Origin: Paraspadella gotoi | Taxonomy: Eukaryota; Animalia; Chaetognatha | NCBI GenBank assembly: GCA_051294375.1 | Contig: CM119269.1 | Coordinates: forward strand, 12,366,981-12,430,980 | Length of the DNA: 64,000 nt | Reading direction: 5' to 3' | Shown: positions 13,642-61,944 of the stretch, piece by piece | Position numbering within the stretch: the first letter of the stretch is position 1 | Layout: every line of letters begins with the position of its first letter | Notes under the pieces: model-generated | What the model saw: the letters and a program-made list of their open reading frames with translations, nothing else | Told to the model about the DNA's origin: nothing | Database searches by the model: none | Translations under genes and position numbers: made by a program

Positions 13642-16031
13642 GGGGGGACATAATCATGAATATCATAAAAGATTGTGTATTATACTGTAAATTATATGCT
13701 TCTTTCCTAACAAATTAATTTGTGGTAAAATATCCGAGCATCAATTACAAAGCAAAAAAAAAGCAACAGGAAATAAAAAACAGGGTTAAAAATAAAACAA
13801 TAAAAAAAAGAACAAACAATTCTCATGGAAAGAAAAAGACTCCCACTGTTTGTTCCCGATGGAGGCAGCCACTTTTTATGGGTAATTTTAAATATCGTCT
13901 TCAGAAGAAAAGAAAGAAGAAAGAAAAAAGAAAGAAGGAGTTAGGTGCATAAAGAAAAGAGAAAGAGAAAGAAAGAAAGAAAGAAAAAAGAAAGAAAGAA
14001 AGAAAGACAGACAGCAAGATAGAAAGACAATATGAAAGAAATAAGAAGAACGAAGCAGAAGATAACAAAAGAAAGTTTTTTTTTGTTTTTTTTTTTTTGG
14101 CCTTACAGAGATTGCGCTATCGTTTAGAAAAAGCTCCCGTTTCTGATAGAAGCTAAAAAAGCCTGACAAAGGCTCATGGGGGACACCCGCTCAAAGGCTC
14201 ACAATGAATCTTTGGAAAAAGCGATGCTGAAATGAAACGACCTTCAGCTCAGATTTTTTTACGTTTCTTTACAAGTACATATTGCCCGGTTATTAAATTC
14301 TATGAATGTATATTAATTCAAGACTGGTAAAATAATTTCGAACAACAAAGAAATCTGTACGACCGATATAAAATGAAAAGTAATTAAACCAGCTATCTTG
14401 GCTCCTTACTTTGGCTAAAGCTCAGGATAAGGAAAAACTCAACTATGATAGTCTTAATTAAACGCTTGATATTTTCTTGTAAGAGGGATAGAGGCCCGAA
14501 ACTACTAGGGTTAAAATAGCTTATTCATTAGATATATTGGTTGTACAAATAATTACTCGGATTAGTGATCCCTTAAAACGAACATTAACCAAGCATTACT
14601 GGCACTCTTTTCCAAAACTGCCACACGGAAAGAACAAATTATCGCCTATTGATTTGTTAATATTAAAACTTAAGATCGAACTATAATCTGACTTTAATCA
14701 TTTCATAAATGAATTTAACGTACAGTCCCGAATACTTGCATTGACCCCAATGGGGCTCAAACCCAAGGCCGTTTGGCGGGAAAAAGAATTTTCGCTCTTA
14801 TTCCACCGGGGTTACGATATTCGATCCAAGTGGGTGGTGATAGTGAATGTGTTTCCACGAGATTCCCATTTTTGTTCCTTAATCCATGAAATTAATTTCA
14901 ACCTTGATATTTCACTGTAATCTATTACTAAACCCTTAAACTAATCACTAATCCTAATCCATAACCGTAATCCCTAAACCTAACCTTATCATGATCGCGA
15001 ACTCTAAACAGTAATCTTTATTCTCTGACCTACACACTTAACCCTAAAACGTAATCCCTGACTCTAATCACTAACCTACTTTCTTGCTCTCACGCTTAAC
15101 CTAGCCCCTAACTTAATATTTAACCACTAATCTCAAACCTAATCATTAAACTTAAAAAAACTATTATGGTGGACTAAAATCCACCAACCGTTCATCAGCG
15201 GCCATTGGTGCCGGAGGCAAGTCATTCGCCTCCCAACCCAAAGGTCCGGGGTTCTAGCCCGGTGGTCGTCTGGCAGTTAAGAGGGACGGGGCGCTTAACC
15301 CGCCTGTAACTCGGTGTTACAGCCTGATCCGAAGCTCAGGGACTTCTTATATTGAACGGTTCTGTCATTAACACATAATAATAATTACTGTCTCTTCACT
15401 ATTTCAGTTTTAAATTTGAAATGAAACGGGGCGTTTTGGAAATTTATGGCTAAACTGTACGTACATACTGGCATTTGTGATCCCGCTCCTAAAACGAACC
15501 TTACCCCAATCCAAACTTACCCGCGGTGTCCAATGGCAACGTCGAGGACGCCGTCTCGTAGTTGATGCTCTGTTTGCTCTTGCGGGCGAAGCGGCCGCCG
15601 ACGGCGAACATAACGGCGGCGATCCAGGCGAAGATACAGGCCAGCCAGGCGAAGGCGTAGGACCAGGAGTAGCAGTAGTCCAGATATTTAGATCTGGAGG
15701 GAGTGGGGATAGAGAGAGAGAAGAGAGAGAGAGAGAGATGTTGGGGGGGAGGGGAATGTAATCTCGGTCTTGCTACCTTAGGCTTCGCAATCGATCTTCT
15801 CTCTCTGTCTATCGGGTTCTATCTTTCTTTCTGTGTCTCTTTCTCTCTTTTTTTCTTTCTTTCTTTTTCTGTCTCTTTATTTTTTCCTTCTTCTTTATTT
15901 ATTTCTTTTGTCACTCTATCCTCATTTGTTTTATTCTTTCTTTCTTTCTTTCTTTATTTTCCTCTCCTCTCCATTAGACGTACTCGATATTGTCCACGGT
16001 GTCCATGGTCAAGTGTAATCACTTCTATTTC

Positions 16032-16268: not shown

Positions 16269-18003
16269 AAAGAGAGAGAATGTTATAATCGAGATTCGAG
16301 AAGATGACACTTTAATGATTTTTTTTTTTAAATTGTTCTTATTAATTTAATTTGTTACTGTGGCAGCAAGACTTAAAGCTGCCTCACTGCTGTCCGTCCT
16401 CAGCCTCGTCTCAATGGCTGAGCAGGCTAAATCATCTCATTCCATCCGTGCGTCCCGGGTTCAATCCCTGGGCATCCCGGTTCTGGCTTAAATGTGACGG
16501 TGCCGGTATAAACATGCCAGTGACAGGAGGCGGTCACTGAGGGTCCACAGCCCCTACGCCAGTTTGTGAGATACCCCGCGCCCTGGGTATCACAGGCTAT
16601 CCTCCCGTTGCCATAAGTGGTGAGCCCTACTCTCGAACACGCAACCGCTGCGCACCATGGCCCATGCTTACGTTGCTTTAGGTATGCATATCACGCCTAT
16701 GCCCTACTTCTCTGGTAACGCTTCCAGACTCGCTCGCGACCAGCCGCTCGCTCTCACTATGGCATGGATCAAAAACCTTCTCTCAGACATACCTCAGGAT
16801 TGAGGCCCCTGTGGAGAAGTCTGGTGGGGGGATCCTGTGGCAGCAAGACTTAAAGCTGCCTCACTGCTGTCCGTCCTCAGCCTCGTCTCAATGGCTGAGC
16901 AGGCTAAATCATCTCATTCCATCCGTGCGTCCGGTTCAATCCCTGGGATCCGGTTCTGGCTAAATGTGACGGTGCCGGTATAAACATGCCAGTGACAGGA
17001 GGCTCACTGAGGGTCCGCGCCCCTACGCCAGTTTGTGAGATACCCCGCCCTGGGTATCACAGGCTATCCTCCCGTTGCCCATAGTCTTCCCTTACGTCAC
17101 AACTTATTTTTTATCTTGTTTTTATTAATGTTTTTTATTATTAAATAATCAACATCGTATTAACACAAACAATAACGCGTAACGGTATCAACAACGCTTA
17201 AAAAACTGGAAGGGTAACGGTATAAATAATAGCGAAAAAGTCTGTAACACAGTAAAATAAAAACTACACTGATAAGATGTAATATTTCTTTTGATATTTT
17301 TAATGTTATGAACTAATTCATAAAAAACTTAAATATAACGTTCAAGAATCAGATGTTAATATCATAAAAACCAGAAACAGTAAAAAACGATAAACGTCAA
17401 GTATAAAAACGTTCAAAATAATACGCAAAAACAAAAATTTCAAAAACATGAAATTTTATAAATATTATGAAATGTTTAACCTTAAAATAAAACGTTCTTA
17501 AAACGTGAAAGATATTAAAGTCAAAACAGCGCTTAATTATGTAAAAAATCTAAAAAATTTAAAAAATCTTAAATTTTGATAATTTTAACTGTAATTTTAA
17601 TTTTAACTGTAATATTTTAACAACGCATAAAACATAATTATAGATAGCAAGCTACAATAAAAAAAAATTCATCACGCAAAATCAATTAAAGACGCTGTTT
17701 TTTTAATTTTTTTAATAAATAATTCATGTACTATATATATATAATGATCGCTTGAATAAAGAATAATTTTAATTTAAATAAAATTCGTACCGTAAAATTA
17801 ACCATAAACAAAAAAAATATAAACAAGTTAAAAACCCGAATTTTCGTTGCTATAGTCGAAAAACCTTGACAGTTCTAGGCCGCCATTTTGGAAATGGAGA
17901 ACAATATCGAGAAGTTGTTCGTGTATGCAAATAGTTTGCTTGAGTAACATATCGCAGCGGCGGTACGTATTGGAAGATGGGGGAACTAATTGAGAGAGAG
18001 AGA

Positions 18004-18076
<73 letters not shown>

Positions 18077-19379
18077 GAAATGTGAAATTTGGTAAAAACA
18101 TTAAATCGGCTTGGGAAGAAAAGGAAAAGAGATAAGAAACCCAAAAGTCGCCGAAAATTCGTTTAAAAAAAGAACGATAATTATTTTCTCAACAATTTAA
18201 TTAACAGTTTTTATCTTTTTGAAAAGGCGCTTACAATGCTGATCCGTAGCTTTATCTTGGGATTAAAACCGTGGTTAAGGGCTCGATCGACCACAAAGGC
18301 GGCTTAGAACTAGATGGTACTTGTTATATTATAAATGACGAAAACTTTTCATCTACAGAAAAAAAAAAAGTGAAGAATTTTTGACGCTGAAGTCATCATA
18401 ATTTTTTATAACGTTTTATATTTTTGGTTTAACTTTTTATGGGGAATCTAAATCTTTATTAAAATAATACCATTAATTATTTAACTAATTATTTAACTTA
18501 TATAAATTATTTACAATTTACAATTTATTTCAAAACCTTAATAAATTTCTATAAAATTAATAATGCTGTGATGCCAGGGCTTTGGTATGTTTAAGATAAA
18601 TATTCAAAATATACCTTTAAAATATAAGATAAGCAACAATGAAGTATCACCATTTAGTGATGGCTCGCCTATACCTGGATATTGGGATTAAAGAGCCGAA
18701 ATCCATGAAGGGTATAGGTTCCCAACTGATGACCCTCCCATTGTATAAACATAAATGATAAAAATTATTCAAAAAAGAAATAATTAAAAAGTAGTATAAA
18801 GAAAAAATAAAATTGTCATTAAAGTATTTTAAAATTATATTCATGACATAAAGGTGCCCCTATAGACCTTTCCCCAGTATGTATCCCTATCAGAACATAC
18901 AATTCTACATGGTAGTCTTATCCCTATTGGTAAAAAAATCATATATAACGTTGGTCCCCCCTCAAAAAATTATCCATTCCCACCCCTTTCTGTTCAGCCT
19001 CTTAGATATTATGATTTTTCATTAATGATTTTCTAACAGAAATGATGTGTGATATCTATTAGAAAACTAGTCTAGATAGTAATCTAGCCTTGTGTTGTAT
19101 AGATGCTCCCTCTATTTCCAGAAGACATCACTGACTTCCCCTTCCCAAATTGAATTATTAGATAAATAAAATATTTTTAAAAAAGAAAGCAATATATATT
19201 TGATTAAATAATATAGATTAAATAGTAAATCCTTCATAAAAATATTAAAATAGAAAAATATAAAATAGTGAAACAAGTAATTTGCAAATTTTCATATACT
19301 CGATAATTTTACTACCTCGCATAAAATTATTATTTTTAATTGACTCAATTCAATTTTTTGTTCTTCTTACCCATGTGAC

Positions 19380-19440
<61 letters not shown>

Positions 19441-19782
19441 TTCTTTAGCACAAAAATGTAGACTAAATTTCAAACCTGTTAACGCTGATGAAGGCTCGAA
19501 ATTAAGAGCCGAAACATGTACGTTTATGAAAGAAATAAACCAAACGTTGTTGAAACAAATTTTTCAAACTTTTTATATTTTTGGTCTAACTTTTTATGGG
19601 GAATCTAAATCTTTAATAAAGACTTCATATACTCGATAATTTTACTATCTCGCATAAAATTTTTATTTTTAATTGACTCAATTCTAAGCTACAGTCTTCT
19701 TACCCATGAAAGAAGGCGATGGCTGCAGCGACGAAGAAAGCGCAAAAACAAAGGAGGATCGTGTTGAATCGATGGAGTGTGG

Positions 19783-19842
<60 letters not shown>

Positions 19843-22484
19843 GAGAGAGAAACATATTCATTTTTTAAATACTTAATAAAATAAATAAAGAAGGAAATAT
19901 TAAACGAGGAAAAGGTGTTACAAAAATATGTTTTTATTAAATTAATATTTAAACATTTTTATACTAATTATCAGTAGCGAAGTAGTAGATTCACATAGTA
20001 GCATCTTATAAGACGTATGTTTATGATCTAACTGCCAAAATAGAGTGGTGTGAAAATAATAAATTTTTAGAAAATTAAAATTTATTTTTTAATTTTATAC
20101 ATACAGTGAGCTATATTTATATATAATAATAAGTATATAAGAAGCTAAAATTTAAAAATGCACTTGATGGCAGCCGTGTGTCCCACCTTTCCGAGGTGGG
20201 ATTAGACCTCCATTTGATGTCTTTTTTGGCTAGCCTCCGACAAAAAAACCAACAAAGCTACAATTTCATAAGTTTTTCGAGCTGTTTTTTGCTAAATATA
20301 GTTTTTTGTAATAATAACATAATTTTTAAAAAAGATTTATATTTTCTTTTATCAACTTTTAACGAGGAATCTGAATCTGTTTTCAGAATTTAAAAAAACA
20401 CTATTTTAAAATTTTGATATTATATAAGGGTAGTATTATATACAAAATAAACTGACTGGGCTACAATATTTATAAAAAAAAATAACTAGAGATTAGAATT
20501 CATTAATATAATAGTTTTTAAGATATAATTGCTAAGTTTTGATTCCAAACTTTCACTTCACCCTACTAAGGAGTTATCCCTGTTTTTTTTACTTTTGAAA
20601 CACTGTAGCACAAAAGGAGATAATGACAAAAAGCGGAACAGCTGGTCACCATTAATTTATTAAGTTTAAATATTTTTCAAGCTATCGATAATAAATAAAT
20701 ATTTTTATTTAATTTCTTGAACGTTTTCTGTTTAAACGGAGAGTAGAAAAATTTGTGCGTCTCGAAAGAATTAACATGTGCAAACCAAGATAATTAATTT
20801 CATAATTAATAAATAAATTGACAATAAATAAATAAATAAATTGAAAATACTCTCGACTTTTCGAGCACCATACTTTTCTTTAAGACAGACCTACTATCGT
20901 AAATTCTGAAAAAACAGGTTTCAAGGAAAATTAGTTGCATAGGTTTTATTTATGGTAGGTCTTTCAGAAATTAGCAAATCGCATGTAAATTGTAACACTG
21001 ATTAAAATAATAAAACGTTACCTGGATCCGTGAACCGCATAAAATCCTAAAATGACGGAGAGGAAGAGAGAGAAGATGGCAAATGCCATCAACCCGAATG
21101 TGGCGCGCATCAGGTGGAACCGGTGCCATTCCTGAGACGAAGAGGAAAACAAATCTGGAATCATCAGCCTCTTTTTTTTCTCTCAAAGTCAATTTGTGTT
21201 TTTTTGCGAGGGAAAAAAAAGAATTCGAAGTCAAAATGGAATCGAGGCCATATTTACTTAAAGCGGCCCATTTAAGTTTATATTCCAAATAAAGTTAATT
21301 TTTAGAATTAAAGATATTGCCGGAAGACAACGATAATACCACTCTCCTTATTATAATTATTATATATTATTATTATATATCATTATATTAAATTAAACTA
21401 ATAATTGAAGTATTTTGCTTTCTTTTCGTTGCGTTTTGATTGAGAGAAAACAAAGTTTGTAATTTTTAATAGAGAAACTATTTTTTAAAAATATAACAAC
21501 GGACATGTTTCGGCTGTTATTTTTCGAGCCTTCTTCACGGTTTGAAAGTAAGTGGCATCAGCAACAATATCACCAAGAGCAACAGCATCAGTAACAGCAT
21601 CAGCAAGACCAATAGCATCAGCATCAGAAACAGTGTCAGCATCAGCATCAGCAGCATCAGCAGGAACAGCATTTGCCGCCAGAATCTCTCCTTTCTCACT
21701 TTGTTCCGGAAGTTGACGTTGTGATCTGGCGGAATCTGCAAGTCGATGTAGAAGCAACGAGTCGAGATTCCTGAAGCAAATCTTTCGAATTGATTGACGA
21801 GATCGAGAGGATCGACGCCGGCTCCGCTATTAGGGATGACATAGACGATTAAGGGAAGGACTCATTGTTGACGTCGTTCTTGTTGTCTGTCGTGCGAGGA
21901 TTTAACGCTATATTTTATTTCATTTCTAAGCCGTCCTCACGCAAGTTACCGCAGGGTAAGTACCGTTGAGGATTGATCCCGGTACCTAATGGTCATGAGG
22001 TCTGATTTTCAGGTATATTTAAAAATTTCAATTTAACTGCGAAATGTAATGTTTAATTCCCAGAGCTAATTTTTCTTACGAGGCGACAAAGTCATGGGAC
22101 CCTAGGTCCTATTACCAGATGTTAACAGCGAACTATATTTCGTCATTGATATTATTTGGCTTGTTGTGTTTTTTTTTAGGGACTCACGTGAACTCGTCAC
22201 ACATGCATTCACGCAAGAGGCCGAAGTGATGAGGGTGATGCTCGTGTCGAATCGACTCGTTGACTGCAGGGGCGCCTGAATCAAAAAAAAAAAAAAAACT
22301 AGAGTGAGACAGAGACAGAGCGAGAGAGAGACAGAGATAGTGTCCGCCCGTCCGTTTTTTTCTCACCGGTCGTTCTCCAAACGTCCATCCAGTGATCAGT
22401 ACCGAGAGCGATGATGCTGCAGATGAGCGCCAAAATCGCGAAGAAGAGGCCGAGGCCAATGAACAAACTCATTTTACGCTGCAT
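13110..22484 (-). CDS. Claudin/PMP22-superfamily four-TM protein, ~412 aa, 11 exons: 22484-22367, 22275-22188, 22132-22080, 21985-21941, 21907-21700, 21131-21022, 19784-19704, 16198-16085, 15693-15521, 13580-13525, 13298-13110
   Basis: TM1 MSLFIGLGLFFAILALICSIIALGTDHW, loop motif HFGLLREC...C, TM2 RATFGLMAFAIFSLFLSVILGFY, TM3 ILLCFCAFFVAAAIAFFHG, TM4 YCYSWSYAFAWLACIFAWIAAVMFAVG. All introns are GT-AG. Exons 1-2 and 6-11 are phase-consistent as written; exons 3-5 need bases present in the duplicate copy. AATAAA on the minus strand at ~12817-12822. Confidence 0.88.
14930..15150. repeat. Degenerate (CCCTAA)-like hexamer array
   Basis: Recurring AACCCT/AATCCT/AACCTA variants; highly eroded. Confidence 0.5.
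15198..15385 (+). mobile_element. tRNA-derived SINE-like element carrying a twister ribozyme fold
   Basis: tRNA-like head 15198-15269 (acceptor stem GCGGCCA/TGGTCGT, A-box-like TGGTGCCGGAGG, B-box-like GGTTCTAGCCC), twister at 15275-15344, (ATA)n tail. No TSD recognised and only one copy in the window. Confidence 0.7.
15275..15344 (+). ncRNA. Twister ribozyme, type-P5 permutation (predicted cleavage U15296^A15297)
   Basis: P5 AGTT/GACT; P2' G(A)GG with P2 CCC; GA 15285-15286; T1 CGG with CCG; UAA; T2 GC/GC; P3 CTGTAAC/GTTACAG; P4 CCTGA/TCAGG closing loop TCCGAAGC. Confidence 0.85.
16483..16562 (+). ncRNA. Twister ribozyme (type P5) in 5' LTR (predicted cleavage U16509^A16510)
   Basis: P5 CTGGC/GCCAG; P2' ATGT with P2 ACAT; GA; T1' CGG; UAA; GC; P3 CAGTGAC/GTCACTG; P4 AGGG/CCCT; loop TCCACAGC (one T1 mismatch in this copy; C in place of the first A of AAGC). 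Confidence 0.75.
16956..17031 (+). ncRNA. Twister ribozyme (type P5) in 3' LTR (predicted cleavage U16981^A16982)
   Basis: Same fold; T1 CCG/CGG is intact, but several single-base deletions affect P3 and the P4 loop (possible assembly errors). Confidence 0.65.
18461..19290. mobile_element. ~0.8-kb dispersed repeat (other copies ~28645-29431 and ~60549-61222; inverted fragment split at ~43500-43569 / 45644-45670)
   Basis: Near-identical sequence at three places (e.g. GATGGCTCGCCTATACCTGGATATTGGGATTAAAGAGCCGAAATCCATGAAG); class not determined. Confidence 0.8.
19480..19525 (+). ncRNA. Minimal type I hammerhead ribozyme (Penelope-type), cleavage after GUA at 19520
   Basis: AACG-CTGATGA-A-GGCTC(gaaattaa)GAGCC-GAA-ACATGT-A-CGTT: intact core, stems I and II, palindromic stem III; AATAAA follows. 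Confidence 0.88.
21497..21543 (-). ncRNA. Degenerate type I hammerhead of the same family
   Basis: Minus strand AAACCG-TGAAGA-A-GGCT(cgaaaaataac)AGCC-GAA-ACATGT-C-CGTT; the C of CUGANGA and stem I are disrupted. Confidence 0.6.
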
Positions 22485-22957
22485 CGCTGCTCCGTTCGGC
22501 CTCTTGCTGCCGCTGGTACTGCCGCTTTTGTTGTTGTTTTCGTTTGACTTTTATTTACACTTGGAGTCGGAGATTAAAGAGTTGTGCTGTTTGTTTGTTT
22601 GTTTGTTTGTTAAAGAGTTGTGTTGTTTGTTTGTTTATTTGTTAAAGAATTGTTCTGTTTGTTTGTTTTTTTCACCGAATCGTTTCTTTACTGTGAATTG
22701 TTTTCTGTTCCTGTTTAGCGCGACTTTAAAGAAATAGAATGAAATATATACTGTAGTTGTTGTTGTCGATTCAATTTGTAAAAATTTTAAAAAAATAATC
22801 TTAAAAGCATAAGGATCGAGCCGCATTCGATAGTAACCAAANNNNNNNNNNGGCTCGATAACAATTTATAATTTGTCAAGAAAAAAAAATAGAAAAAAGT
22901 AAAGGGGAAGAAATGCGGTAGAATGAACGAATTGATACGTAATATAATATAATATGA

Positions 22958-23212
22958 TATGGCAACAGCCGGGTTGCCTGTGATGCCTATTGGGGTGGGG
23001 CATCTCACTGTTGGCTTTGGGGGCTTCCGACCCTCAGTGACGCCTCCAGTCACTGGCGCGGTTACGCTAGGACGGTCTCGCTTTGCCAACGCAGAGGGAA
23101 GTCGTGAGGACTGTGGATGGAACACTACGCTTGGGATGGTGTGTTCCCCTTCTGAGCCAATGGATTTGGCTGAAGGATGGTGGACGTGAGGCGGTGTGAA
23201 TATACCGCCACA
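22958..23212 (-). mobile_element. Solo LTR related to the 16359-17083 element, with 4-bp TSD ATGA
   Basis: Minus strand TGTGGCGG...GTTGCCATA, 255 bp; ATGA at 22954-22957 and 23213-23216; shares CCAGTGAC..GTCACTGAGGGTC and GTGAGAT.CCCC...ATCACAGGC blocks. Confidence 0.88.
23010..23090 (-). ncRNA. Twister ribozyme (type P5) in solo LTR (predicted cleavage between 23064 and 23063)
   Basis: P5 GTTGGC/GCCAAC; P2' GCG with CGC; GA; T1' CCG pairing with CGG in loop TCGGAAGC; UAA; GC; P3 CAGTGAC/GTCACTG; P4 GGG/CCC. Confidence 0.82.
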
Positions 23213-23907
23213 ATGACTTTGTTTGCTCCAACCACCAGCAATGTCGGGATTTATTTTCCAGAAGATAATTTATAAGATAATATTTTCGAAGCCTACAAGG
23301 GCTGCGTCGACCGTCAGATGAACTATCTTGAAAATGTAGCAAGGGTTTATCAATCGTAAAGGGACAGTAAATGTCGAATAAATGACGATTATTTAATTTT
23401 GGCTAAAATAAAGCAGCTAAAATGGCCACTCGAATACTGACCCGACGCGGGCTCACAGAATATCTTTAATTAATATTTATAAGGATTATGATGACGACGA
23501 CGACTTCCGATGATAATTGATGATCATGATGCGATTCTATTAATGATAATGAAAACGACGAAGAGGTAAAGGACCTTTTTCACCGCAGAGGGCGTGGCTA
23601 CCGTGACACAGTTAATCGCGTCCCGTCACTCCGGTTTTGATCGACCGAGGAATCCGAAGGAAAACAATTAAAAGAAAAACCGGAAAAAAAAGAGAAAAAT
23701 GTTAAAGAATAAAGAGACTGTAGTCGGGCATATCATATCCACAAGACAAACTTATTACGAGTCTCGCGTCCAATTTTCTTTCTTTATTTCTTTTTATTAT
23801 TGTTGTTGTTGTTGTTGTTTTATTCATTTTTATGCTAATCCAAAGGAAAATGATTTCTCTTCGATATTGAGAAAAGGATTCGATGTGAATTAAATCCGAG
23901 CTGTGAT

Positions 23908-24175
23908 CAGTGACGTGTAGAAGAGACCTGGTGGAGACCCTTCACAATTTTTTTGGGAGGGAGGATATTTTAAAATACGATTAATTTTATAACTTATAAA
24001 AATATTTATATCCATATTTTTTGTATTTTTTTAATGTTTCAAACTCATATAAAAATATTTTGTGCGAAATTAATGTGTTTATTTTATCTTTTATTTCTTT
24101 ATATTTTTTCGGAATCTCCCCAAGAGCCAAGTCCTCTGTCAAATTTCTAGAATCTACCCCTCTACACGCCTCTGG
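23908..24175. mobile_element. Possible old hAT-type MITE (duplicate at ~33804-34065)
   Basis: Imperfect TIRs CAGTGACGTGTAGA / TCTACACGCCTCTG; TSD not intact. Confidence 0.4.
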
Positions 24176-25188
24176 CAGAAATGTCACAGCTTTGCTATGA
24201 ATTGATCCAAACTGATGTCACATTAAGGATCAACTTAAAATAATCGAAGATAAAATTGAAACATATAGAAAAAGAAAGTTTGCTGTTTTCCATCAATATT
24301 TTAAAGATTGAAAAAAACAAAAATTAATAATTAAGTATGACTTGTCTACTTGAAATGGAAGTATTTATCTTTGTTCGTTTCGTCGCGACAAAGAAGGACA
24401 CAACATAACTTCGTCTTTGTTTCCACGTTTCGCGTGGGTGATATCTCGAACATTTCTCATATACTTTCAGCCAATGAGAGATGTCTTTGACTTTAATATT
24501 GACCAATCAAGAGCAAGAATTTTTTGAAAGATAAAGAAATGACGGAAATTTTTCGAAATTTTTTAGCGCCAGTGATGATGGGAGTTATTTAGCCAAATAT
24601 AAATTTTATTAAATAATAAAATAACTACTTAAACTTCTTTTGTCCAGTCCTCCCACCATTGGATTCTTTTCAGGCTTACTCATATTTTTTTTAAATAATA
24701 TAAAATAAGAAATTCTTCTGTTAGGTTGGCGACCAATTTTGTCTTCAAAAATTTTAACCACGAGAAAATGACGAATCCAAATCTTTCTTCTCGAAACGCG
24801 AGTAAGACACTGGGACGGGCCCGCGAGTCAGCGAGCCAGCGAGTCAGCTCGATCTAGCGAGTTCGTGGGCGAATTCAAGATCAATGAATCGTTTTTGATT
24901 GAATTAGAAAAAGAGAAAATGGTTTTTTTTTTGTTAAAACTTAAATTCAAGGAATAACCACAGTGAGTACGACGACGACGACGACGACCACGACGACATC
25001 AAATTCATCTTGAGAAGAGATTCCATGTTTCGAATGAACGTCTGGATTTGCTTCGCCGTCGCAAGATCACTGCACAATGCAGAGTGCACATCTGTACGGA
25101 CCGGACTTACAGTTACAATACTGTTTTGGATTAGATATATTTTTGCCCCAAGGAAAAAAAAGACGACGACGAAGAAGAAGACGAAGGA

Positions 25189-25224
<36 letters not shown>

Positions 25225-26147
25225 AAAACCGGTTTGAAAGGGATTGTCTCTTCGATTCGCTCCCGATCGGCTAAAATTTACTGAATTGAAAAACCGGTTG
25301 GATTTTAGAGACGAATCTGTCGAAAACTTTTAACGTGAGGCGACTTACATTAAAAAAATAATATTCAAACTTGATTTACGATTCATGCATGAATGGTAAA
25401 CTATACTTAAAAAGAATAAGAAATTAAAATTATTTGATGTTTCAATGAACAAAATTAAATTCGTACTTAGAATTATATATTATATTATATTATCTTTCCG
25501 TCGCGTTATTTTGATCGGAAACCAAGATTCAATTTGAATTCCCGCGCCATCCTACTCGCCCCCCCACCCCATGTCTCATCGCTCAAGCCTCGCGATTTCC
25601 GCTAAAATGATCACGAATACATACAATAAATCCAGGCTAAAGTTTCATCCTCGCCCTTTCCTCTCTCATTCACATGCGCGAGGGGGGCCTCGCAGTTTGC
25701 CCTTTCCATGTTTCATCTCTCTGAATATTGCTTTGAAAAAAAAATTATTTGGTTATTAGTGTTTTAAACTTTTAATATAAATTTTCTTTAACGTACATAG
25801 GAGAAATAATATAATAGAAATGATAATCATCATGACAATATCAATTATAATATAGTATCAATTGTACAAATTTCATAGTATATTATATTATATATAATAT
25901 ATATTATATATACTATATTTCACAAAGCGGGAGTTGCGGCTTTAAAAAACGCAGTTGGGTTTAGCGCCTCCATTACTAAGAGGGAGAAATAGAAAATCTA
26001 AAAAGCAGAAAGGAAAAGGAAAAATAGAATATAATAATAATAATACATAAAAAACTCTACAAGCATGATTAGGATTGTCTTACGCCGGTGTGTACGACAG
26101 AGGCTATTTACCGTGTATAACTAACGCAGAACGTGCGGAGAGAGAGA

Positions 26148-26239
<92 letters not shown>

Positions 26240-26601
26240 AAAGAGAGAGAGAGGTGGGCGGGAGGACACTGGTTAAAAAAAAAAATTCAATTACTGTTTG
26301 AATTTATCAGTTGAAAAAATCACACATTGTTTCTTTTCTCCCGAATTTGAAGAAAATTGGATGGAAAAGAAAGAAAAAAAAAAGAAAAGAAAAAAGTCTC
26401 TTCCCTGGATTTCCTCCTTAAGCCCCTTTCCTTCTCTGTCTCTGTCTCTGTCTCAAAACGTTTCCCCTCCTCTCTCTCTCTCCCTTTTTTTGGTTCATCG
26501 ACAAGAGGGATGGTTAAGAGAATGAATGGGAGAAATGAACGAAGGAAGTGGGGAGAAAATGAGAGAAAACTCGCTTNNNNNNNNNNNNNNNNNNNNNNNN
26601 N

Positions 26602-28644: not shown

Positions 28645-29530
28645 TATAAATTATTTACAATTTACAAATTATTACAAAACATTAATAAATTTCTATAAAA
28701 TTAATAATGCTGTGATGCCAGGCTTTGGTATGTTTAAGATAAATATTCAAAATATACCTTTAAAATATAAGATAAGCAACAATGAAGTATCACCATTTAG
28801 TGATGGCTCGCCTATACCTGGATATTGGGATTAAAGAGCCGAAATCCATGAAGGGTATAGGTTCCAACTGATGACCCTCCCATTGTATAAACATAAATGA
28901 TAAAAATTATTCAAAAAAGAAATAATTAAAAAGTAGTATAAAGAAAAAATAAAATTGTCATTAAAGTATTTTAAAAATTATATTCATGACATAAAGGTGC
29001 CCCTATAGACCTTTCCCCAGTATGTATCCCTATCAGAACATACAATTCTACATGGTAGTCTTATCCCTATTGGTAAAAAAATCATTATAACGTTGGTCCC
29101 CCCTCAAAAAATAATCAATTCCCACCCCTTTCTGTTCAGCCTCTTAGATATTATGATTTTTCATTAATGACTTTCTAACAGAAATGATGTGTGATATCTA
29201 TTAGAAACTAGTCTAGATAGTAATCTAACCTTGTGTTGTATAGATGCTCCCTCTATTTCCAGAAGACAACACTGACTTCCCCTTCCCAAATTGAATTATT
29301 AGATAAATAAAATATTTTTAAAAAAGAAAGCAATATATATTTGATTAAATAATAAAGATTAAATACTAAATCCTTCATAAAAATATTAAAATAGAAAAAT
29401 ATAAAATAGTGAAACAAGTAATTTGCAAATTTTCATATACTCGATAATTTTACTACCTCGCATAAAATTATTATTTTTAATTGACTCAATTCAATTTTTT
29501 GTTCTTCTTACTCGTGTGACATGTCTCTCT

Positions 29531-29603
<73 letters not shown>

Positions 29604-29642
29604 TTCTTTAGCACAAAAATGTAGACTAAATTTCAAACCTGT

Positions 29643-29688
29643 TAACGCTGATGAAGGCTCGAAATTAAGAGCCGAAACATGTACGTTA
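29643..29688 (+). ncRNA. Minimal type I hammerhead (duplicate of 19480-19525)
   Basis: TAACG-CTGATGA-A-GGCTC..GAGCC-GAA-ACATGT-A-CGTTA. Confidence 0.85.
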
Positions 29689-29864
29689 TGAAAGAAATAA
29701 ACCAATCGTTGTTGAAACAAATTTTTCAAACTTTTTATATTTTTGGTCTAACTTTTTATGGGGAATCTAAATCTTTAATAAAGACTTCATATACTCGATA
29801 ATTTTACTATCTCGCATAAAATTTTTATTTTAATTGACTCAATTCTAAGCTACAGTCTTCTTAC

Positions 29865-29944
29865 CCATGAAAGAAGGCGATGGCTGCAGCGACGAAGAAA
29901 GCCGCAAAAACAAAGGAGGATCGTGTTGAATCGATGGAGTGTGG

Positions 29945-30031
<87 letters not shown>

Positions 30032-32648
30032 ATCATATTCATTTTTTAAATACTTAATAAAATAAATAAAGAAGGAAATATTAAACGAGGAAAAGGTGTT
30101 ACAAAAATATGTTTTTATTAAATTAAATATTTAAACATTTTTATACTAATTATCAGTTAGCGAAGTAGTAGATTCACATAGTAGCATCTTATAAGGAGTA
30201 TGTTTATGATCTAACTGCCAAAATAGAGTGGTGTGAAAATAATAAATTTTTAGAAAATTAAAATTTATTTTTTAATTTTATACATACAGTGAGCTATATT
30301 ATATATAATAATAAGTATATAAGAAGCTAAAATTTAAAAATGCACTTGATGGCAGCCGTGTGTCCCACCTTTCCGAGGTGGGATTAGACCTCCATTTGAT
30401 GTCTTTTTTGGCTAGCCTCCGACAAAAAAACTAACAAAGCTACAATTTCATAAGTTTTTCGAGCTGTTTTTTGCTAAATATAGTTTTTTTGTAATAATAA
30501 CATAATTTTTAAAAAAGATTTATAATTTCTTTTATCAACTTTTAACGAGGAATTTAAAAAAACACTATTTTAAAATTTTGATATTATATAAGGGTAGTAT
30601 TATATACAAAATAAACTGACTGGGCTACAATATTTATAAAAAAAAAATAACTAGAGATTAGAATACATTAATATAATAGTTTTTAAAATATAATTGCTAA
30701 GTTTTGATTCCAAACTTTCACTTCACCCTACTAAAGGAGTTATCCCTGTTTTTTTTACTTTTGAAACACTGTAGCACAAAAGGAGACAATGACAAAAAGC
30801 GGAACAGCTGGTCACCATTAATTTATTAAGTTTAAATATTTTTCAAGCTATCGATAATAAATAAATATTTTTATTTAATTTCTTGAACGTTTTCTGTTTA
30901 AACGGAGAGTAGAAAAATTTGTGCGTCTCGAAAGAATTAACATGTGCAAACCAAAGATAATTAATTTCATAATTAATAAATAAATTGACAATAAATAAAT
31001 AAACAAATTGAAAATACTCTCGACTTTTCGAGCACCATACTTTTCTTTAAGACAGACCTACTATCGTAAATTCTGAAAAAAAACAGGTTTCAAGGAAAAT
31101 TAGTTGCATTGGTTTTATTTATGGTAGGTCTTTCAGAAATTAGCAAATCGCATGTAAATTGTAACACTGATTAAAATAATAAAACGTTACCTGGATCCGT
31201 GAAACCGCGTAAAATCCTAAAATGACGGAGAGGAAGAGAGAGAAGATGGCAAATGCCATCAAACCGAATGTGGCGCGCATCAGGTGGAACCGGTGCCATT
31301 CCTGAGACGAAGAGGAAAACAAATCTGGAATCATCAGCCTCTTTTTTTTTTCTCTCAAAGTCAATTTGTGTTTTTTTCGAGGGAAAAAAAAGAATTCGAA
31401 GTCAAAATGGAATCGAGGCCATATTTACTTAAAGCGGCCCATTTTATTTTATATTCCAAATAAAGTTAATTTTTAGAATTAAAGATATTGCCGGAAAGAC
31501 AACGATAACACCACTCTCCTTATTATAATTATTATATATTATATATCATTATATTAAATTAAACTAATAATTGAAGTATTTTGCTTTCTTTTCGTTGCGT
31601 TTTGATGAGAGAAAACAAAGTTTGTAATTTTTAATAGAGAAACTATTTTTTAAAAATATAACAACGGACATGTTTCGGCTGTTATTTTTCGAACCTTCTT
31701 TCACGGTTGAAAGTAAATGGCATCAGCAAACAACATCACCAAGAGCAACAGCATCAGTAACAGCATCAGCAAGACTAATAGCATCAGCATCAGAAACAGT
31801 GTCAGCATCAGCATCAGCAGCATCAGCAGGAACAGCATTTGCCGCCAGAATCTCTCCTTTCTCACTTTGTTCCGGAAGTTGACGTTGTGATCTGGCGAAT
31901 CTGCAAGTCGATGTAGAAGCAACGAGTCGAGATTCCTGAAGCGAATCTTTCGAATTGATTGACGAGATCGAGAGGATCGACGCCGCTCCGCTATTAGGGA
32001 TGACATAGACGATTAAGGGAAGGACTCCATTGTTGACGTCGTTGTTGTTGTCTGTCGTGCGAGGATTTAGCGCTATATTTTATTTCATTTCTAAGCCGTC
32101 CTCACGCAAGTTACCGCCAGGGTAAAGTACCGTTGAGGATTGATCCCGGTACCTAATGGTCATGAGGTCTGATTTTCAGGTATATTTAAAAAATTTCGAA
32201 ATGTAATGTTTAATTCCCAGAGCTAATTTTTCTTACGAGGCGACAAAGTCATTGGGACCCTAGGTCCTTATTACCAGATGTTAACAGCGAACTATATTTC
32301 GTCATTGATATTATTTGGCTTGTTGTGTTTTTTTTTAGGGACTCACCGTGAACTCGTCACACATGCATTCACGCAAGAGGCCGAAGTGATGAGGGTGATG
32401 CTCGTGTCGAATCGACTCGTGACTGCAGGGGCGCCTGAATCAAAAAAAAAAAAAAAAAAACTAGAGTGAGACAGAGGACAGAGCGAGAGAGAGACAGAGA
32501 TAGTGTCCGCCCGTCCGTTTTTTTTCTCACCGGTCGTTCTCCAAACGTCCATCCAGTGATCAGTACCGAGAGCGATGATGCTGCAGATGAGCGCCAAAAT
32601 CGCGAAGAACAGGCCGAGGCCAATGAACAAACTCATTTTACGCTGCAT
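29865..32648 (-). pseudogene. Second copy of claudin-like exons 1-7, frameshifted as assembled (likely haplotype duplicate)
   Basis: Same exon sequences with different 1-bp indels; exons 8-11 are not duplicated. Confidence 0.6.
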
Positions 32649-35076
32649 CGCTGCTCCGTTCGGCCTCTTGCTTGCCGCTGGTACTGCCGCTTTTGTTGTT
32701 GTTTTCGTTTGACTTTTATTTACACTTTGGAGTCGGAGATTAAAGAGTTGTGCTGTTTGTTTGTTTGTTTGTTAAAGAGTTTTTGCTGTTTGTTTGTTTA
32801 TTTGTTTAAAGAATTGTTCTGTTTGTTTGTTTTTTTCACCGAATCGTTTCTTTACTGTGAATTGTTTTCTGTTCCTGTTTAGCGCGACTTTAAAGAAATA
32901 GAAATGAAATATATTACTGTAGTTGTTGTTGTCGATTCAATTTGTAAAAATTAAAAAAAAAACAATTTATAATTTGTCAAGAAAAAAAAATAGAAAAATG
33001 AAAGGGGAAGAAATGCGTGTGAACGAATGAACGACATATATTGCAATCACGGGTTCCGTGATGTATGGCATCTACTGGGCTTTCGTTCCGACCATCCATC
33101 ACTGGCCTACGCTAGACGTTTGTTGCTCCAACTACCAAGCAATGTCGGGATTTATTTTCCAGAAGATAATTTTATAAGATAATATTTCGAAGCCTACAAG
33201 GGCTGCGTCGACCGTCAGATGAACTATCTTGAAAATGTAGCAAGGGTTTATCAATCGTAAAGGGACAGTAAAATGTCGAATAAATGACGATTATTTAATT
33301 TTGGCTAAAATAAAGCAGCAAAATGGCCACTCAATACTGACCCGACGCGGCTCACAGAATATCTTTAATTAATATTTATAAGGATTATGATGACGACGAC
33401 GACTTCCGATGATAATTGATGATCATGATGGATTTATTAATGATAATGAAAACGACAAGAGGTAAAGGACCTTTTTTCACCCCAGAGGGCGTGGCTACCG
33501 TGACACAGTTAATCGCGTCCCGTCACTCCGGTTTTGATCGACCGAGGAATCCGAAGAAAACAATTAAAAGAAAAACCGGAAAAAAAAAGAGAAAAAATGT
33601 TAAAGAATAAAGAGACTGTAGTCGGCATATCATATCCACAAGACAAACTTATTACGAGTCTCGCGTCCAATTTTCTTTCTTTATTTCTTTTATTATTGTT
33701 GTTGTTGTTGTTGTTTTATTCATTTTTATGCTAATCCAAAGAAAATGATTTCTCTTCGATATTGAGAAAAGGATTCGATGTGAATTAAATCGAGCTGTGT
33801 GATCAGGTGACGTGTAGAAGAGACCTGGTGGAGACCCTTCACAATTTTTTGGGAGGGAGGAATTTTAAACTACGATTAATTTTATAACTTATAAAAATAT
33901 TTATATCCATATTTTTTGTATTTTTTTAATGTTTCAACTTCATATAAAAATATTTTGTGCGAAATTAATGTGTTTATTTTATCTTTATTTCTTTATATTT
34001 TTTCGGAACTCCCCAAGAGCCAAGTCCTCTGTCAATTTCTAGAATCTACCCTCTACACGCCTCTGGCAGAAATGTCACAGCTTTGCTATGAATTGATCCT
34101 AACTGATGTCACATTAAGGATCAACTTAAAATAATCGAAGATATAAATTGAAACATATAGAAAAAAAGTTTTGCTGTTTTCCTCAATATTTTAAAGATTG
34201 AAAAAAACAAAAATTAATAATTAAGTATGACTTGTCTACTTGAAATGGAAGTATTTATCTTTGTTCGTTTCGTCGCGACAAAGAAGGACACAACATAACT
34301 TCGTCTTTGTTTCCACGTTTCGCGTGGGTGATTCTCGAAATTTCTCTATACTTTCAGCCAATGAGAGATGTCTTTGACTTTAATATTGACCAATCAAGAG
34401 CAAGAATTTTTTTGAAAGATAAAGAAATGACGGAAATTTTTCGAATTTTTTAGCGCCAGTGATGAGGGAGTTATTTTAGCCAAATAAAAATTTTATTAAA
34501 TAATAAAATAACTACTTAAACTTCTTTTGTCCAGTCCTCCACCATTGGATTCTTTTCAGGCTTACTCATATTTTTTTAAATAATATAAAATAAGAAATCT
34601 CTTCTGTTAGGTTGGCGACCAATTTTGTCTTCAAAATTTTAACCACGAGAAAATGACGAATCCAAAATCTTTCTTCTCGAAACGCGAGTAAGACACTGGG
34701 ACGGGCCGCGAGTCGCGAGCAGCGAGCCAGCGAGTCAGCCGATCTAGCGAGTTCGTGGCGAATTCAAGATCAATGAATCGTTTTTGATTGAATTAGAAAA
34801 AGAGAAAATGGTTTTTTTTTTTTGTTAAAACTTAAATTCAAGGAATAACCACAGTGAGTACGACGACGACGACGACGACCACGACGACATCAAATTCATC
34901 TTGAGAAGAGATTCCATGTTTCGAATGAACGTCTGGATTGCTTCGCCGTCGCAAGATCACTGCACAATGCAGAGTGCACATCTGTCGGACCGGACTTACA
35001 GTTACAATACTGTTTTGGATTGATATATTTTTGCCCCAAGGAAAAAAAAGACGACGACGAAGAAGAAGACGAAGGA

Positions 35077-35112
<36 letters not shown>

Positions 35113-36934
35113 AAAACCGGTTTAAAGGGTATTGTCTCTTCGATTCGCTCCCGATCGGCTAAAATTTACTGAATTGAAAACCGGTGGATTTTAGAGACGA
35201 ATCTGTCGAAACTTTTACGTGAGGCGACTTACATTAAAAAAATAATATTCAAACTTGATTTACGATCATGCTGATGGTAAACTATACTTAAAAAGAATAA
35301 GAATTAAAATTATTTGATGTTTCATGAACAAAATTAAATTCGTACTTAACAACTGTCAAGCAGGGGGAAAACTTAAATAATTTAATGTACATTTCTAACA
35401 GTCTTTATGCAGTGGGTCATAAGATCCGTCAACTTAGGAGTTCTTATTGGAAACATCTGAATTTTCACTTATAAGGGAACATACTCTGTGAATAAAAGAC
35501 GTGAGTCTGTTAAAAGCTTCAGCGCATTTTATCGTGAGAGCAACACAAACCTGTCTCGAATAGCTATTTAAAATGTAATTTTATTGGTTGATTTATAAAA
35601 TACCTTATTTATGCTAGCGGAGACATTCCGATTAATATAAGAGTGGTTTAAATAATTTGAAATTTACTCATTATAGGAAGAACTGATGAATACAAGACTG
35701 TGATGATAAAGTTCAGGATATGTATTACTAGATAGGAGCTTAAACCAAAAGCGTCATCGGGCAAGATACTTATAATAGATAATTATATTTTGTACCAATT
35801 TATATTATATATATTATCATTATCTCTCGTCGGCTGTTATCTTTGATCGGAAACCAAGATTCATTTGAATTCCCGCGCCATACCTGACTCGCACCCCCAC
35901 CCATGTCTCTATCGCTCAAGCCGTGGTGCGATTTCCGCTAAAATGATCAACGAACATACAATAAACCAGGCTAAAGTTTCATCCTCGCCCTGTTCCTTCT
36001 TCATTCACATGCGCGAGGGGGGCCTCGCAGTTTGCCCTTTCATGTTTCCATCTCCTGAATATTAGCTTTGAAAAAAAAAATGTATTTGGTTATTATGTGT
36101 TTTAAACTTTTAATATAAATTTTCTTTAACGTACATAGGAGAAATAAATAAATAGAAATATAATCATCATTGACAATATAATTATAATAGTATCAATTGT
36201 ACAAATTTCATAGTATATTATATTATATCATAATATATATATATATATAACTATATTACAAAGCGGGAGTGCGGCTTTAAAAAACGGCGAGTTGGTTTTT
36301 TAGGCGCCTCCATTACTAAGGAGGAGAAATAGAAATCTAAAAAAAGCAGAAAGGAAAAAAGCGAAAAATAGAATTATAAGTAATAATAAAACATAAAAAA
36401 ACTCTACAAGCATGCATTAGGAATTGTCTTACGCCGGTGTGTACGACAGAGGCTATTTACGTTATAACTAACGCAGAACGTGCGGAGATAGAGAGACAGA
36501 GAGGAGAGAGAGAGAGGAGAGAGAGAGAGAAGAGAGAGAGCGAGAGAGAGAGAGAGAAGAGAGAAGAGAGAGATGAGAGAGAGAGAAGAGAGAAAAAGAG
36601 AGAGAGAGTGGGCGGAGAACTGGTTAAAAAAAAAAATTCAATTACTGTTGAATTTATCAGTTGAAAAAATCACACATTGTTCTTTTCTCCCGAATTTGAA
36701 GAAAATTGGATGGAAAAAGAAAGAAAAAAAAAAGGAAAAGAAAAAAGTCTCTTCCCTGGATTCCCCTTAAGCCCCTTTCCTTTCTCTGTCTTCTGTCTCT
36801 GTTCTCAAAACGTTTTCCCCTCCTCTTCTTCTCCCTTTTTTTGGGTTTCATCGACAAGAGGGATGGTTAGAGAATGAATGGTGAGAAAATGAACGAAAGG
36901 AAGTGGGGAGAAAATGAGAGAAAACTCGCTTTAT

Positions 36935-41019: not shown

Positions 41020-56182
<15,163 letters not shown>

Positions 56183-59021: not shown

Positions 59022-61944
59022 TTTCAACCGAGCTTCAAATTAATAATTATATAAAAATAAAACCCAATATTTTTTTCTCACTAATTTGCCTAATTACCAC
59101 GACGAGAATGAATCGTCGATTCCAATCCGTCAATTCCATGAGCCTTTTCCTCTTCCTCTTCCTCCTCCTTCACCTACGTCTTTTGTTTTTCCTTTGTTTA
59201 CCCTATTCATCACCAGGAGGAGGAAAGAGTGAGTGAGAGAAAGAGAAATAGTCTGTTACCCGGTTCGACGATCGAGGAGGAGGTGAGTTAAGACGCGTCG
59301 AGGTGAGAAAAAGTGAGAACTTGAAGAAGTTTCTAGTTGCAAAGCAAATCTAAAAGTCAGTCGGTCGGTCGGTCTGTCTGTTTGTCTGTTATCCTTTTGC
59401 TATATATATTTTAAATACTAAAGTATACTTTATCATTTCAGTTAATACTTAATTATTATATATGTTTTTTACTTCTATAATGTATATTATCCATATAATA
59501 TCCATTCATTCATCTGTGATGGTACTAAGGTTTAAAACTTATAAAAATTTTTATTGCTAAATTTAAATCTTAAACATTTTGATGGGAAATGAATAGAATT
59601 TATTTAAAATTTTGTATTTTAACGTACTACCCAAACTTACGAGGTATTTTTTCTTATTTTACAGATTAGGATAGGTTGCTCGTTACGCATATATTTTAAT
59701 TGTTATATTCGACTGTAGTCGAACATAAAAATTGTATAATTAAAAGACCTCCTGGAAATTTGAGAATGTTTATATAAAATCAATGTTACGCAACACATTA
59801 AAATTGACCCGTTTTGTTCTTTGTCGCTGTTGTCGTTCCGTTTCCTGCGATTGTCTCAGCTGAAATCGTTTCCGACGCTTATTGTCGATTAGCGACCTTG
59901 AGTCGTTAAAATGGATGCGGAGAAAGGCGGGGAGAGATGAATGAGAGGGAGGGGGGGAGATGAATGGGAAGAGGGGGAGAGATAAAAGAGGGAAGGGGGA
60001 GAGATGAATGAGGGAAGGGGGAAAGGCAAAGAAAGTGAGGGAGGGGGAATATATGAAAAGAGGGGAGGGAGAAAGAAAGACAGGGTGAGAGAGAATAAGA
60101 GGGAGAAAAAAAAATTAGAAAGCGAGGGAGAGAAGGGGAGAACGGCAGGAGAGAACTTAAGAAGAGAGAGGCCAGAGGGAGTGCGAGACAAAGGACTCAG
60201 GAGAGAGGGAAAGGTCGCCAATGAGAAGAGAGATGGTTAGAGAGAGGTGAGGGAATAGATAATGAAAGGAAGGAGAGAAGACTTGTGAACGGACTGAGAG
60301 TGAACGGAGAAAAGTGAAAACAGCGAAAGAGCTCAACACTTCATTCCATTAAGGTAGACAACTGATAAGAAAAAAAAAGTCTGGAGTTGAGAGACTTCGT
60401 TGTTGCTTCAAGAAAAATCGATGATAAAATTAGTTGTTAGAGTTAAATATTCTAACTCAAAAGGCTCAGTAAATTGGTAATGGGTCTAAAATTATATAGC
60501 CTCTCCAAACACAGGGGTAAAATACGACATTCAAAATACGACATTCAAAATATACCTTTAAAATAAAGATAAACAACAATGAAGGATCACCATTTGGTGA
60601 TGGCTCGCCTATACCTGGATATTGGGATTAAAGAGCCGAAATCCATGAAGGATATAGGTTCCCAACTGAAGACCTTCCCATTGTATAAACATAAAAAATA
60701 AAAAATATTCAAAAAATAAATAATTAAAAAGTAGAATAAAGAAAAAAAAATTTAATTAAAGTATTTTAAAATTATATTCATAACATAAAGGTGCCCCTAT
60801 AGACCTTTCCCCAGTATGTATCCCTATCAGAACATACAATTCTACATGGTAGTCTTATCCCTATTGGTAAAAAAATCATATATAACATTGGCCCCCCCTA
60901 AAAAAATTATCCATTCCCACCCCTTTCTGTTCAGCCTTTTAGATATTATGATTTTTCATTAATGACTTTCTAACAGAAATTATGTGTGATATCTATTAGA
61001 AAACTAGGACAGATAGTAATCTAACCTTGTGTTGTATAGATGCTCCCTCTATTTCTAGAAGACAACACTGACTTCCCCTTCCCATATTGAATTATTAGAT
61101 AAATGAAACTTTTTTAAAAAAGAAAGCAATATATATTTGTTTAAATAATATAGATTAAATACTAAATCCTTCATATAATATAAAAATAGAAAATAGTGAA
61201 ACAAGTAATTTGCAAATTTTCATACATTGTTTATTATAAAATAAATTAAATAAAATAAAAGTATTTATTAAATGAATGGATAATTTGTACCAATTTCATA
61301 AATGAGTTATTTTTAATTTTTTATATTGATTGCACAGATTTCATGACGTCATTGGCGAATTGAGTTTGATTGTGACTACCCAAAAAAATAATATTAATTG
61401 GTTAATCAATTTTAATCAAAGTTTAATTTGGCCAAGATTGAGCGACTAAAGGAGATCGTTGAATTAATCAACAAGCTAATTAAATAATTACTTAATTTCT
61501 CTTTTAAAATTTACTTAAAACTCTTCCTGTCTGAATTTTGCCGCCATTTTCTTTTTTTTTGGGGGGGGGCGCGACGACAGAGACGACGAAAACGAAAACG
61601 ACGAAAACGACGACGACGAAAACGACGACGACGACGACGAGAATAAAAGTTTCCTCGTTAAAAACGTCAGAGCGGAAATAACGAGTTCGCTGGCGACGAC
61701 GATAGCGACGATAGCGACGACGACGATAGCGACGACGAAACGACCGTGACGCTCCTTACGTGGTGACGACTGTGAAAAGAAAATCACAAAATCGGAATTT
61801 TAATGACGAGGATGGATTCATGTGAAGCGTCATTTCGGATAAATACTTATTCATTTCTTCTTTTTTTTCTTTTTTTTTACGATTCTTTCCTAATTTCCGG
61901 CAGGTCATTATGACTTGATGGGTTTTGTGACGCAGAACCGTAAC

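Follow-up and report, generated by a model that had tools for sequence, protein, structure and literature searches.

Twister ribozyme motifs within putative LTRs of tRNA-promoter mini-retrotransposons in the chaetognath Paraspadella gotoi

Results

Genes and repeats in the window

The window analyzed here is a 64,000-nucleotide stretch of the Paraspadella gotoi genome (contig CM119269.1) that holds three families of short repeats, designated A, B, and C (Table 1). Both family A and family B are intronic to a claudin-like gene and run on the strand opposite to it, so that the pre-mRNA of this gene would not be cut by the ribozyme motifs described below. For the claudin-like exon of Table 1, feature look-alikes from the claudin clan scored up to 0.90, which is a lead only. 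The window further contains an 8-kb direct duplication (18501–26576 and 28645–36931, 90–97% alike) with two claudin-like first-exon copies, which may be either a gene duplication or an assembly artefact, as well as large inverted repeats (2996–3934/7663–8597, 87% alike; 43632–44514/44800–45645, 83% alike) and a dispersed AT-rich 695-bp repeat (18602–19296, 28745–29437, and 60543–61224; 93% alike).

Table 1 Features of the three repeat families and of the adjoining gene, in window coordinates.
Feature	Position	Strand	Basis
Target-site duplication CTAT, left copy, 4 bp	15161..15164	+	Sequence
Family A unit (234 bp, TA...CA), probable solo LTR	15165..15398	+	Depth step and loose-end pile-ups
7-bp hairpin opening the family A unit	15167..15186	+	Predicted fold
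8-bp predicted stem enclosing head and twister, 5' arm (partner 15353-15360)	15187..15194	+	Predicted fold
Decayed tRNA-like piece (head) with Gly-CCC-like loop, presumed Pol III promoter	15198..15270	+	Boxes and helix versus shuffles
Twister motif, type-P5 order, predicted cut U15296/A15297, outer helix 15272-77/15342-47	15272..15347	+	Helix table, covariance model, covariation
Short ATA run, internal to the unit, no terminal tail	15375..15385	+	Unit goes on to 15398
Target-site duplication CTAT, right copy, 4 bp	15399..15402	+	Sequence
Claudin-like host gene exon	15521..15693	-	Translation, splice motifs
Family B first LTR, 257 bp, TG...TA	16359..16615	+	Direct repeat, boxes, twister motif
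Family B interior, 220 bp, without long reading frame	16616..16835	+	Sequence
Family B second LTR, 248 bp	16836..17083	+	Direct repeat of first LTR
Family C solo LTR, 255 bp, TG...TA, TCAT duplication on both sides	22958..23212	-	Sequence, flanks

Family A is an abundant, dispersed repeat with fixed ends

The limits of the family A unit were read by aligning contigs of public runs (X4, X5, X6, X9, and X10) to the region. Inside 15165–15398, depth rises by about four orders of magnitude, and loose contig ends pile up at both limits in X4, X5, and X9 (124, 50, and 26 contigs at 15165; 154, 70, and 39 at 15398). In X4, from which 16,706 contigs aligned to the unit, summed depth reached 3.3–4.9 million within the unit versus about 320 on the left-flank contig, and the corresponding values in X5 were 0.17–0.53 million versus 8. 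Summed contig depth is not itself a copy number and points to family A copies on the order of ten thousand, in line with the high copy number implied by an initial, sequence-only reading. The flanks of different copies are unrelated (agreement 0.40–0.45), as in a dispersed repeat, and the 64-kb window holds a single copy. Several family A pieces in X5, X6, and X9 carry 12–22 gap letters and perhaps form a deletion subfamily. No contig of run X11 (organism C) matched the unit, which is no proof of absence.

The sequence-only reading had placed a tRNA-headed SINE with an (ATA)n tail at 15198–15385. Depth and loose ends instead delimit a unit that starts 33 bases 5' of the tRNA-like head and ends 13 bases 3' of the ATA run, which is under four units long and thus no tail. 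A check for target-site duplications, suggested by the same reading, returned the 4-bp CTAT on both sides of the unit, and the flank consensus of other family A copies in the public-run contigs begins with ATAG, ATAT, or CTAT, as would be expected if a near-palindromic target were duplicated over 4 bp. A duplication of this length, combined with ends that are fixed on either side, is integrase-like, not SINE-like. Four-bp duplications are also made by animal TRIMs, according to the available text of PMC10886601.

We next consider junctions between units. The end of the unit is joined to its start, in the same direction, in 7 X4 contigs (summed depth 1,274) and 1 X6 contig, the intervening letters not being known; these joints could be two-LTR copies, tandem dimers, or neighbors. 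No such joint was seen among X9 contigs, and no strand-changing joint among the 15 shown of 51. If the X4 joints are head-to-tail dimers, they would suit a true SINE or a non-LTR retrozyme like the schistosome Sm-alpha repeats, whose tandem or read-through transcripts a LINE would mobilize; such an origin would also fit the close adjacency of tRNA-like piece and ribozyme, the resemblance of the twister core to RTE-linked twisters of Schistosoma (PMC8501958, available part), and the fact that 5' parts of RTE do enter SINEs (PMC5786205). Yet PMC5786205 argues that a SINE would be truncated by a ribozyme placed after its head, and the 33 fixed bases before the head, the fixed 3' end, the 4-bp duplication, the small number of joints, and sister families of LTR type (see below) all make this origin very unlikely. 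Accordingly, we abandoned the SINE label, and the Sm-alpha-like tandem arrays proposed along with it appear rare at most, the 7 joints comparing with 1,678 X4 contigs that run over the ends of the unit.

A decayed tRNA-like head precedes a permuted twister motif

The head of family A comprises an acceptor-like 7-bp helix (15198–204/15263–69), an A box (15206–17), and a B box (15250–60), each box having one mismatch. Both boxes and the helix occurred together in 2 of 20,000 shuffles, compared to 131 of 20,000 for the boxes without the helix. Among family A contig variants, the common letters at 15266 and 15269 preserve the acceptor-like pairing, and one at 15212 fits the A-box pattern. The D and anticodon arms are unpaired, and ARAGORN made no tRNA call on the head at default settings, calling tRNA-Gly(CCC) only at a threshold that yields 29 calls across the window. 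Rfam likewise gave no tRNA match for the head, whether its gathering threshold or a cutoff of E = 10 was applied, and blastn against phages returned chance matches only. The proposed tRNA origin of the head holds up, and we describe the piece as a presumed promoter that derives from a tRNA and has since decayed. HDV-like or hammerhead readings of the head and of the minus strand were dropped, since inspection by eye found the core absent.

Downstream of the head, the 5' strand of the outer helix leads through a linker into the P2 3' strand, GA (15285–86), the T1 strand (15287–89), a six-base turn, UAA (15296–98), the P2 5' strand, GC (15302–03), P3, P4, and the closing strand of the outer helix. 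P3 has 7 bp (15304–10/15316–22) and P4 5 bp (15323–27/15336–40) around the loop TCCGAAGC, while the pseudoknots are complete, with 3 of 3 pairs in T1 (15287–89/15329–31) and 2 of 2 in T2 (GC/GC, 15302–03/15334–35). The motif thus displays U-A-A at the predicted cut, the GA general-base strand, T1, T2, and P4 with L4. This is the twister that the sequence-only reading had described, with the same helices, loop, and pseudoknots, and the sequence places its predicted cut 99 nt from 15198. Other parts are weaker: P2 consists of 2 pairs, a bulge, and 1 pair, P1 has at most 1 pair, and P4 is closed by an A-U pair, a position at which G-C is called essentially invariant in twisters (PMC5408937, available text). 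In the outer helix, ~98% of family A depth has a G at 15345 that pairs.

A strict twister descriptor, written after the sequence was seen, matched this site alone in the window and was found in 0 of 20,000 element shuffles and in none of 40 shuffled windows. Two looser descriptors did not discriminate, the first giving 1 real match versus 1.0 per shuffled window and the second 4 real matches versus 110 over 200 shuffled windows (maximum 4). Rfam twister models matched neither family A nor family B at E up to 10. Beyond this genome, exact-motif scans of viral contigs and prokaryote genomes found nothing, and the 50 matches of a gapped motif scan of metagenome contigs were set aside as chance, none being element-like and none having a 5-pair P4.

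Families B and C share the tRNA–twister order and include a two-LTR element

At 16359–17083, 1 kb from the family A unit, the sequence anatomy is that of a complete two-LTR mini-retrotransposon of 725 bp (family B). Just 3' of the first LTR lies a primer-site-like motif (16618–16630) that agrees in 11 of 13 letters with the tRNA-Trp site listed for Gypsy-32 and Helenus-2_SyJa in the available part of PMC10886601; possibly, family B uses another primer tRNA. A purine tract at about 16812–16832 precedes the second LTR. The two LTRs differ by 1 substitution and 11 gap columns, which look like long-read errors, and the flanks show no clean target-site duplication. Perfect A and B boxes are found in the first LTR (at 16415 and 16458) and in the second head, which was located by a box scan at 16892. 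The twister motif of the first LTR (16483–16562, predicted cut 16509/16510) has one T1 mismatch; that of the second spans 16956–17031, with its predicted cut at 16981/16982.

The solo LTR of family C is 66.5% alike to family B over 242 columns. It carries a perfect A box at 23159, a decayed B box, and a twister motif with a swapped T1 pair and a predicted cut at 23064/23063. P2 is better paired than in family A, with 4 of 4 pairs in family B and 3 of 4 in family C. All four LTRs, i.e., A, both of B, and C, have the tRNA-like piece followed by the twister, and the predicted cut falls 132 (A), 151 and 146 (B), and 149 (C) bases from the start of the repeat. The hairpin that opens the family A unit also opens the units of families B and C. 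A claudin-like start codon lies at 22484 on the same strand as the family C LTR, which is situated some 470 bases upstream of it. Two further remnants were noted. One is a decayed B/C-type piece at 48700–48845 (+), which is 85% alike over 66 bases; the other, at 33034–33125 (−) inside the duplicated block, is a garbled counterpart of family C.

On the strength of its sharp ends, its 4-bp duplication, and the anatomy it shares with families B and C, we consider the family A unit probably the solo LTR of a twister-bearing, tRNA-promoter TRIM. BLAST over the whole LTR found no match of family A to B or C. Outside the twister, the 5' part shows a weak A–C likeness, reached by 12 of 2,000 shuffles when the A box is included and by 160 of 2,000 when it is not. 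LTR ends are TA...CA in family A and TG...TA in B and C, none being TG...CA; such non-canonical ends occur among published Helenus LTRs (PMC10886601, available part) and in tomato TARE1 (PMC3701649, available part). In run X10 (organism B), a loose end behind 15398 resembles the family B primer site, although this rests on two disagreeing contigs with depth under 6. No family A copy with both LTRs was recovered letter by letter. The consensus of pooled family A loose ends from public-run contigs contains no primer site, and full two-LTR copies of family A would therefore be a minority.

The terminal hairpin and an asymmetric subterminal inverted repeat, along with a minus strand that folds well as DNA (z −5.1), could also be read as signs that a tRNA–twister piece was captured by a MITE-like or Helentron-like element, non-autonomous and moving as DNA or by rolling circle. 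This reading has very little probability in our view: the unit has no terminal inverted repeat, family B has LTR anatomy, and family A has a 4-bp duplication, which rolling-circle elements are not expected to make.

Covariation and constraint at the twister

In MAFFT alignments, the helices of family A did not line up with those of B and C. We built a covariance model from the two family B copies and family C, leaving family A out and with a rough calibration. This model recovered the family A twister at 23.6 bits (E about 2e-4), the next best match scoring 7.7 bits. In an alignment of four copies from the three families, fitted to the nested helices of the model, 9 of 20 pairs change on both sides and 94.8% of 77 cells are paired. 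These covariation values were reached in 0 of 500 shuffles, and slid partners gave at most 1 two-sided pair. The T1 pseudoknot, which lies outside the model, has a pair swapped on both sides in family C.

We then turned to variation within family A. Among the 40 variants at 2% or more that are shown (one further is not), 19 represent CpG decay and the other 21 are non-CpG. With the core as set by the analyst, the listed non-CpG variants fall on 0 of 47 twister-core positions versus 18 of 129 other positions (Fisher p 0.004). The common ones are located in the P3 loop or, within the acceptor-like and outer helices, replace wobbles and one mismatch by full pairs.

These data bear on whether the twister may be a blocked or slow passenger of a family A solo LTR that spread as an ordinary tRNA-promoter TRIM. 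The weak P2, minimal P1, A-U closing pair, and absence of an Rfam match would be expected for a passenger, as would the outcome of nested folding, which does not score pseudoknots and predicts a helix at 15287–90/15299–302 (probability 0.93–0.98) that would block T1 and P2. In large assays, however, defects in P1 and P2 are tolerated and the pseudoknots and catalytic bases are critical (PMC11662667, for natural twisters of type P1; PMC5113685). Pseudoknot and catalytic positions are all intact in families A and C, the first LTR of family B having the T1 mismatch noted above. In addition, common non-CpG variants avoid the core, the changes of family A relative to B and C are compensatory, and plant retrozymes that are active have been reported to adopt blocked folds as well (PMC4918200). 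Overall, we judge a passenger twister distinctly improbable, and expect that the twister probably cleaves.

Discussion

Proposed life cycle

Our preferred reading, to which we assign a probability of roughly 60%, is a twister-bearing mini LTR element whose RNA would be cut in both LTRs, circularized, and copied by Gypsy machinery. Specifically, Pol III would start near 15198 (family A numbering), in the tRNA-like promoter of the first LTR, and read through the second LTR, meeting no T4 run in LTR or interior; in family B, the sequence between the first head and a point past the second LTR has none. Both twisters would then cut, and the unit-length RNA set free between them, 472 nt in family B, would carry the purine tract and the primer site as well as sequence equivalent to one complete LTR, with the promoter supplied by the second LTR. 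A host ligase would close this RNA into a circle, and reverse transcription around the circle by a Gypsy-type helper would rebuild two LTRs, or one. We infer Pol III use, circle formation, and Gypsy help from the plant precedent. In plant LTR retrozymes, cleavage by the hammerheads of the two LTRs frees an RNA that lacks a terminal repeat and is then circularized; according to the model proposed for them, the circles are templates from which, with Gypsy help, solo, single, or multiple copies arise (PMC4918200).

The sequence-only reading had noted the paradox of a monomer that cuts promoter from tail, and had suggested as ways out that cleavage is conditional or that the unit propagates as tandem or circular RNA. 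The paradox does apply to a solo family A copy, the transcript of which, from 15198 to a T run at 15408 (roughly 210 nt), would be cut into dead-end pieces of about 99 and 112 nt. For a two-LTR form that is cut in both LTRs and circularized, it would disappear, and the guess of multi-unit or circular RNA holds up.

The same LTR element could alternatively be cut by the twister of the second LTR only, which would replace a terminator. The resulting RNA would be linear, not circular, and would begin and end with the same ~99-nt repeat, so that ordinary strand transfer could copy it. The LTRs do lack a T4 run, while many Helenus LTRs show, by eye, a T run after the tRNA-like part. Moreover, the 15187–94 arm lies upstream of the presumed Pol III start, so that each LTR copy would fold in a context of its own. 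The presence or absence of this arm hardly alters the folds predicted for the twister region, however, and plant LTR retrozymes cut in both LTRs (PMC4918200, available part); we thus regard a single cut as unlikely.

Relation to known elements

Two described classes resemble the elements reported here. Like plant LTR retrozymes, as presented in the available text of PMC4918200, they are non-coding and have, in family B, two LTRs with a ribozyme motif in each, a primer-site-like motif, and a purine tract, along with a 4-bp duplication in families A and C, solo LTRs, and a predicted unit-length RNA between the cuts. They differ from these in their animal host, in a twister of type-P5 order instead of a type III hammerhead, in the tRNA-derived internal promoter, and in LTR length (234–257 bp versus 300–400). 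Accumulation of unit-length circular RNA is a further mark of LTR retrozymes; the circle here is predicted.

The second class is Helenus/TRIMp3, i.e., TRIMs with a tRNA-like A/B-box piece in the LTR. As far as described in the available part of PMC10886601, animal Helenus has 4-bp duplications, like those of families A (CTAT) and C (TCAT), and Gypsy-type primer sites, and its size range (311–1263 bp) includes the 725 bp of family B. The elements here differ in that their ends are non-canonical and their tRNA-like piece is not followed by a T run. Family A also appears to be far more abundant than the largest Helenus family reported there (5,575 LTRs). In the text available for that paper, "twister" occurs 0 times, "ribozyme" appears only in a reference, and no crustacean term was found; in its supplement, as far as available, 3 of 5 motif terms were absent and the other two occurred in an interior and in Ajax LTRs, with no twister context seen.

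Other animal ribozyme repeats are more distant. The twisters of Perere-3/RTE line up with those here in core order and in the letters of L1, L2, P3, P4, and L4, but are of type P1 and located at the 5' end of a coding LINE, compared to permuted strands, P5 closure, other T1 letters, and an LTR host here (PMC8501958, available part). Schistosome Sm-alpha and other animal non-LTR retrozymes likewise contain a ribozyme and have single copies that are dead ends (PMC6765202, PMC7229834), and Sm-alpha also has a tRNA-derived Pol III promoter (PMC6765202, PMC7229834, bioRxiv 10.64898/2026.07.22.740005). By contrast, the available parts of these three sources describe hammerheads in tandem arrays with no primer site or purine tract, whereas the units found here are dispersed, their ends are fixed, and a 4-bp duplication flanks them.

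More generally, in the available portions of the literature, the retrozymes of animals are hammerhead repeats of the non-LTR kind, and twisters belong to RTE or Perere elements (PMC7229834, PMC7761336, PMC6765202, PMC9695139; bioRxiv 10.64898/2026.07.22.740005). Our literature search, which covered mainly openly accessible papers, found no twister inside an LTR or TRIM, and found the self-circularizing design of an LTR with a ribozyme described only in plants, with a different ribozyme. Taken together, these comparisons suggest an element that would work like a plant LTR retrozyme and is built like Helenus, while being a strict member of neither. As the motif is a twister and not a hammerhead, it is no LTR retrozyme by strict definition.

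Implications

In its broadest form, the proposal states that animals own Gypsy-moved LTR retrozymes combining a Pol III tRNA promoter with a permuted twister, that this genome has at least three families of them, one with copies on the order of ten thousand, and that they would give rise to circular RNAs of ~470 nt; we see the chances of this full statement as evenly balanced. If true, it would give twisters a second eukaryotic role, beyond the trimming of RTE-type LINE transcripts, and show that the life cycle of LTR retrozymes, known from plants, also operates in animals, where another ribozyme serves it. It would also join two element classes that have been described separately, tRNA-promoter TRIMs and retrozymes. 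The family B element at 16359–17083 is the best object for experiments, and such elements would offer both a short natural route to circular RNA that can be tested and a very large natural set of twister variants missed by Rfam.
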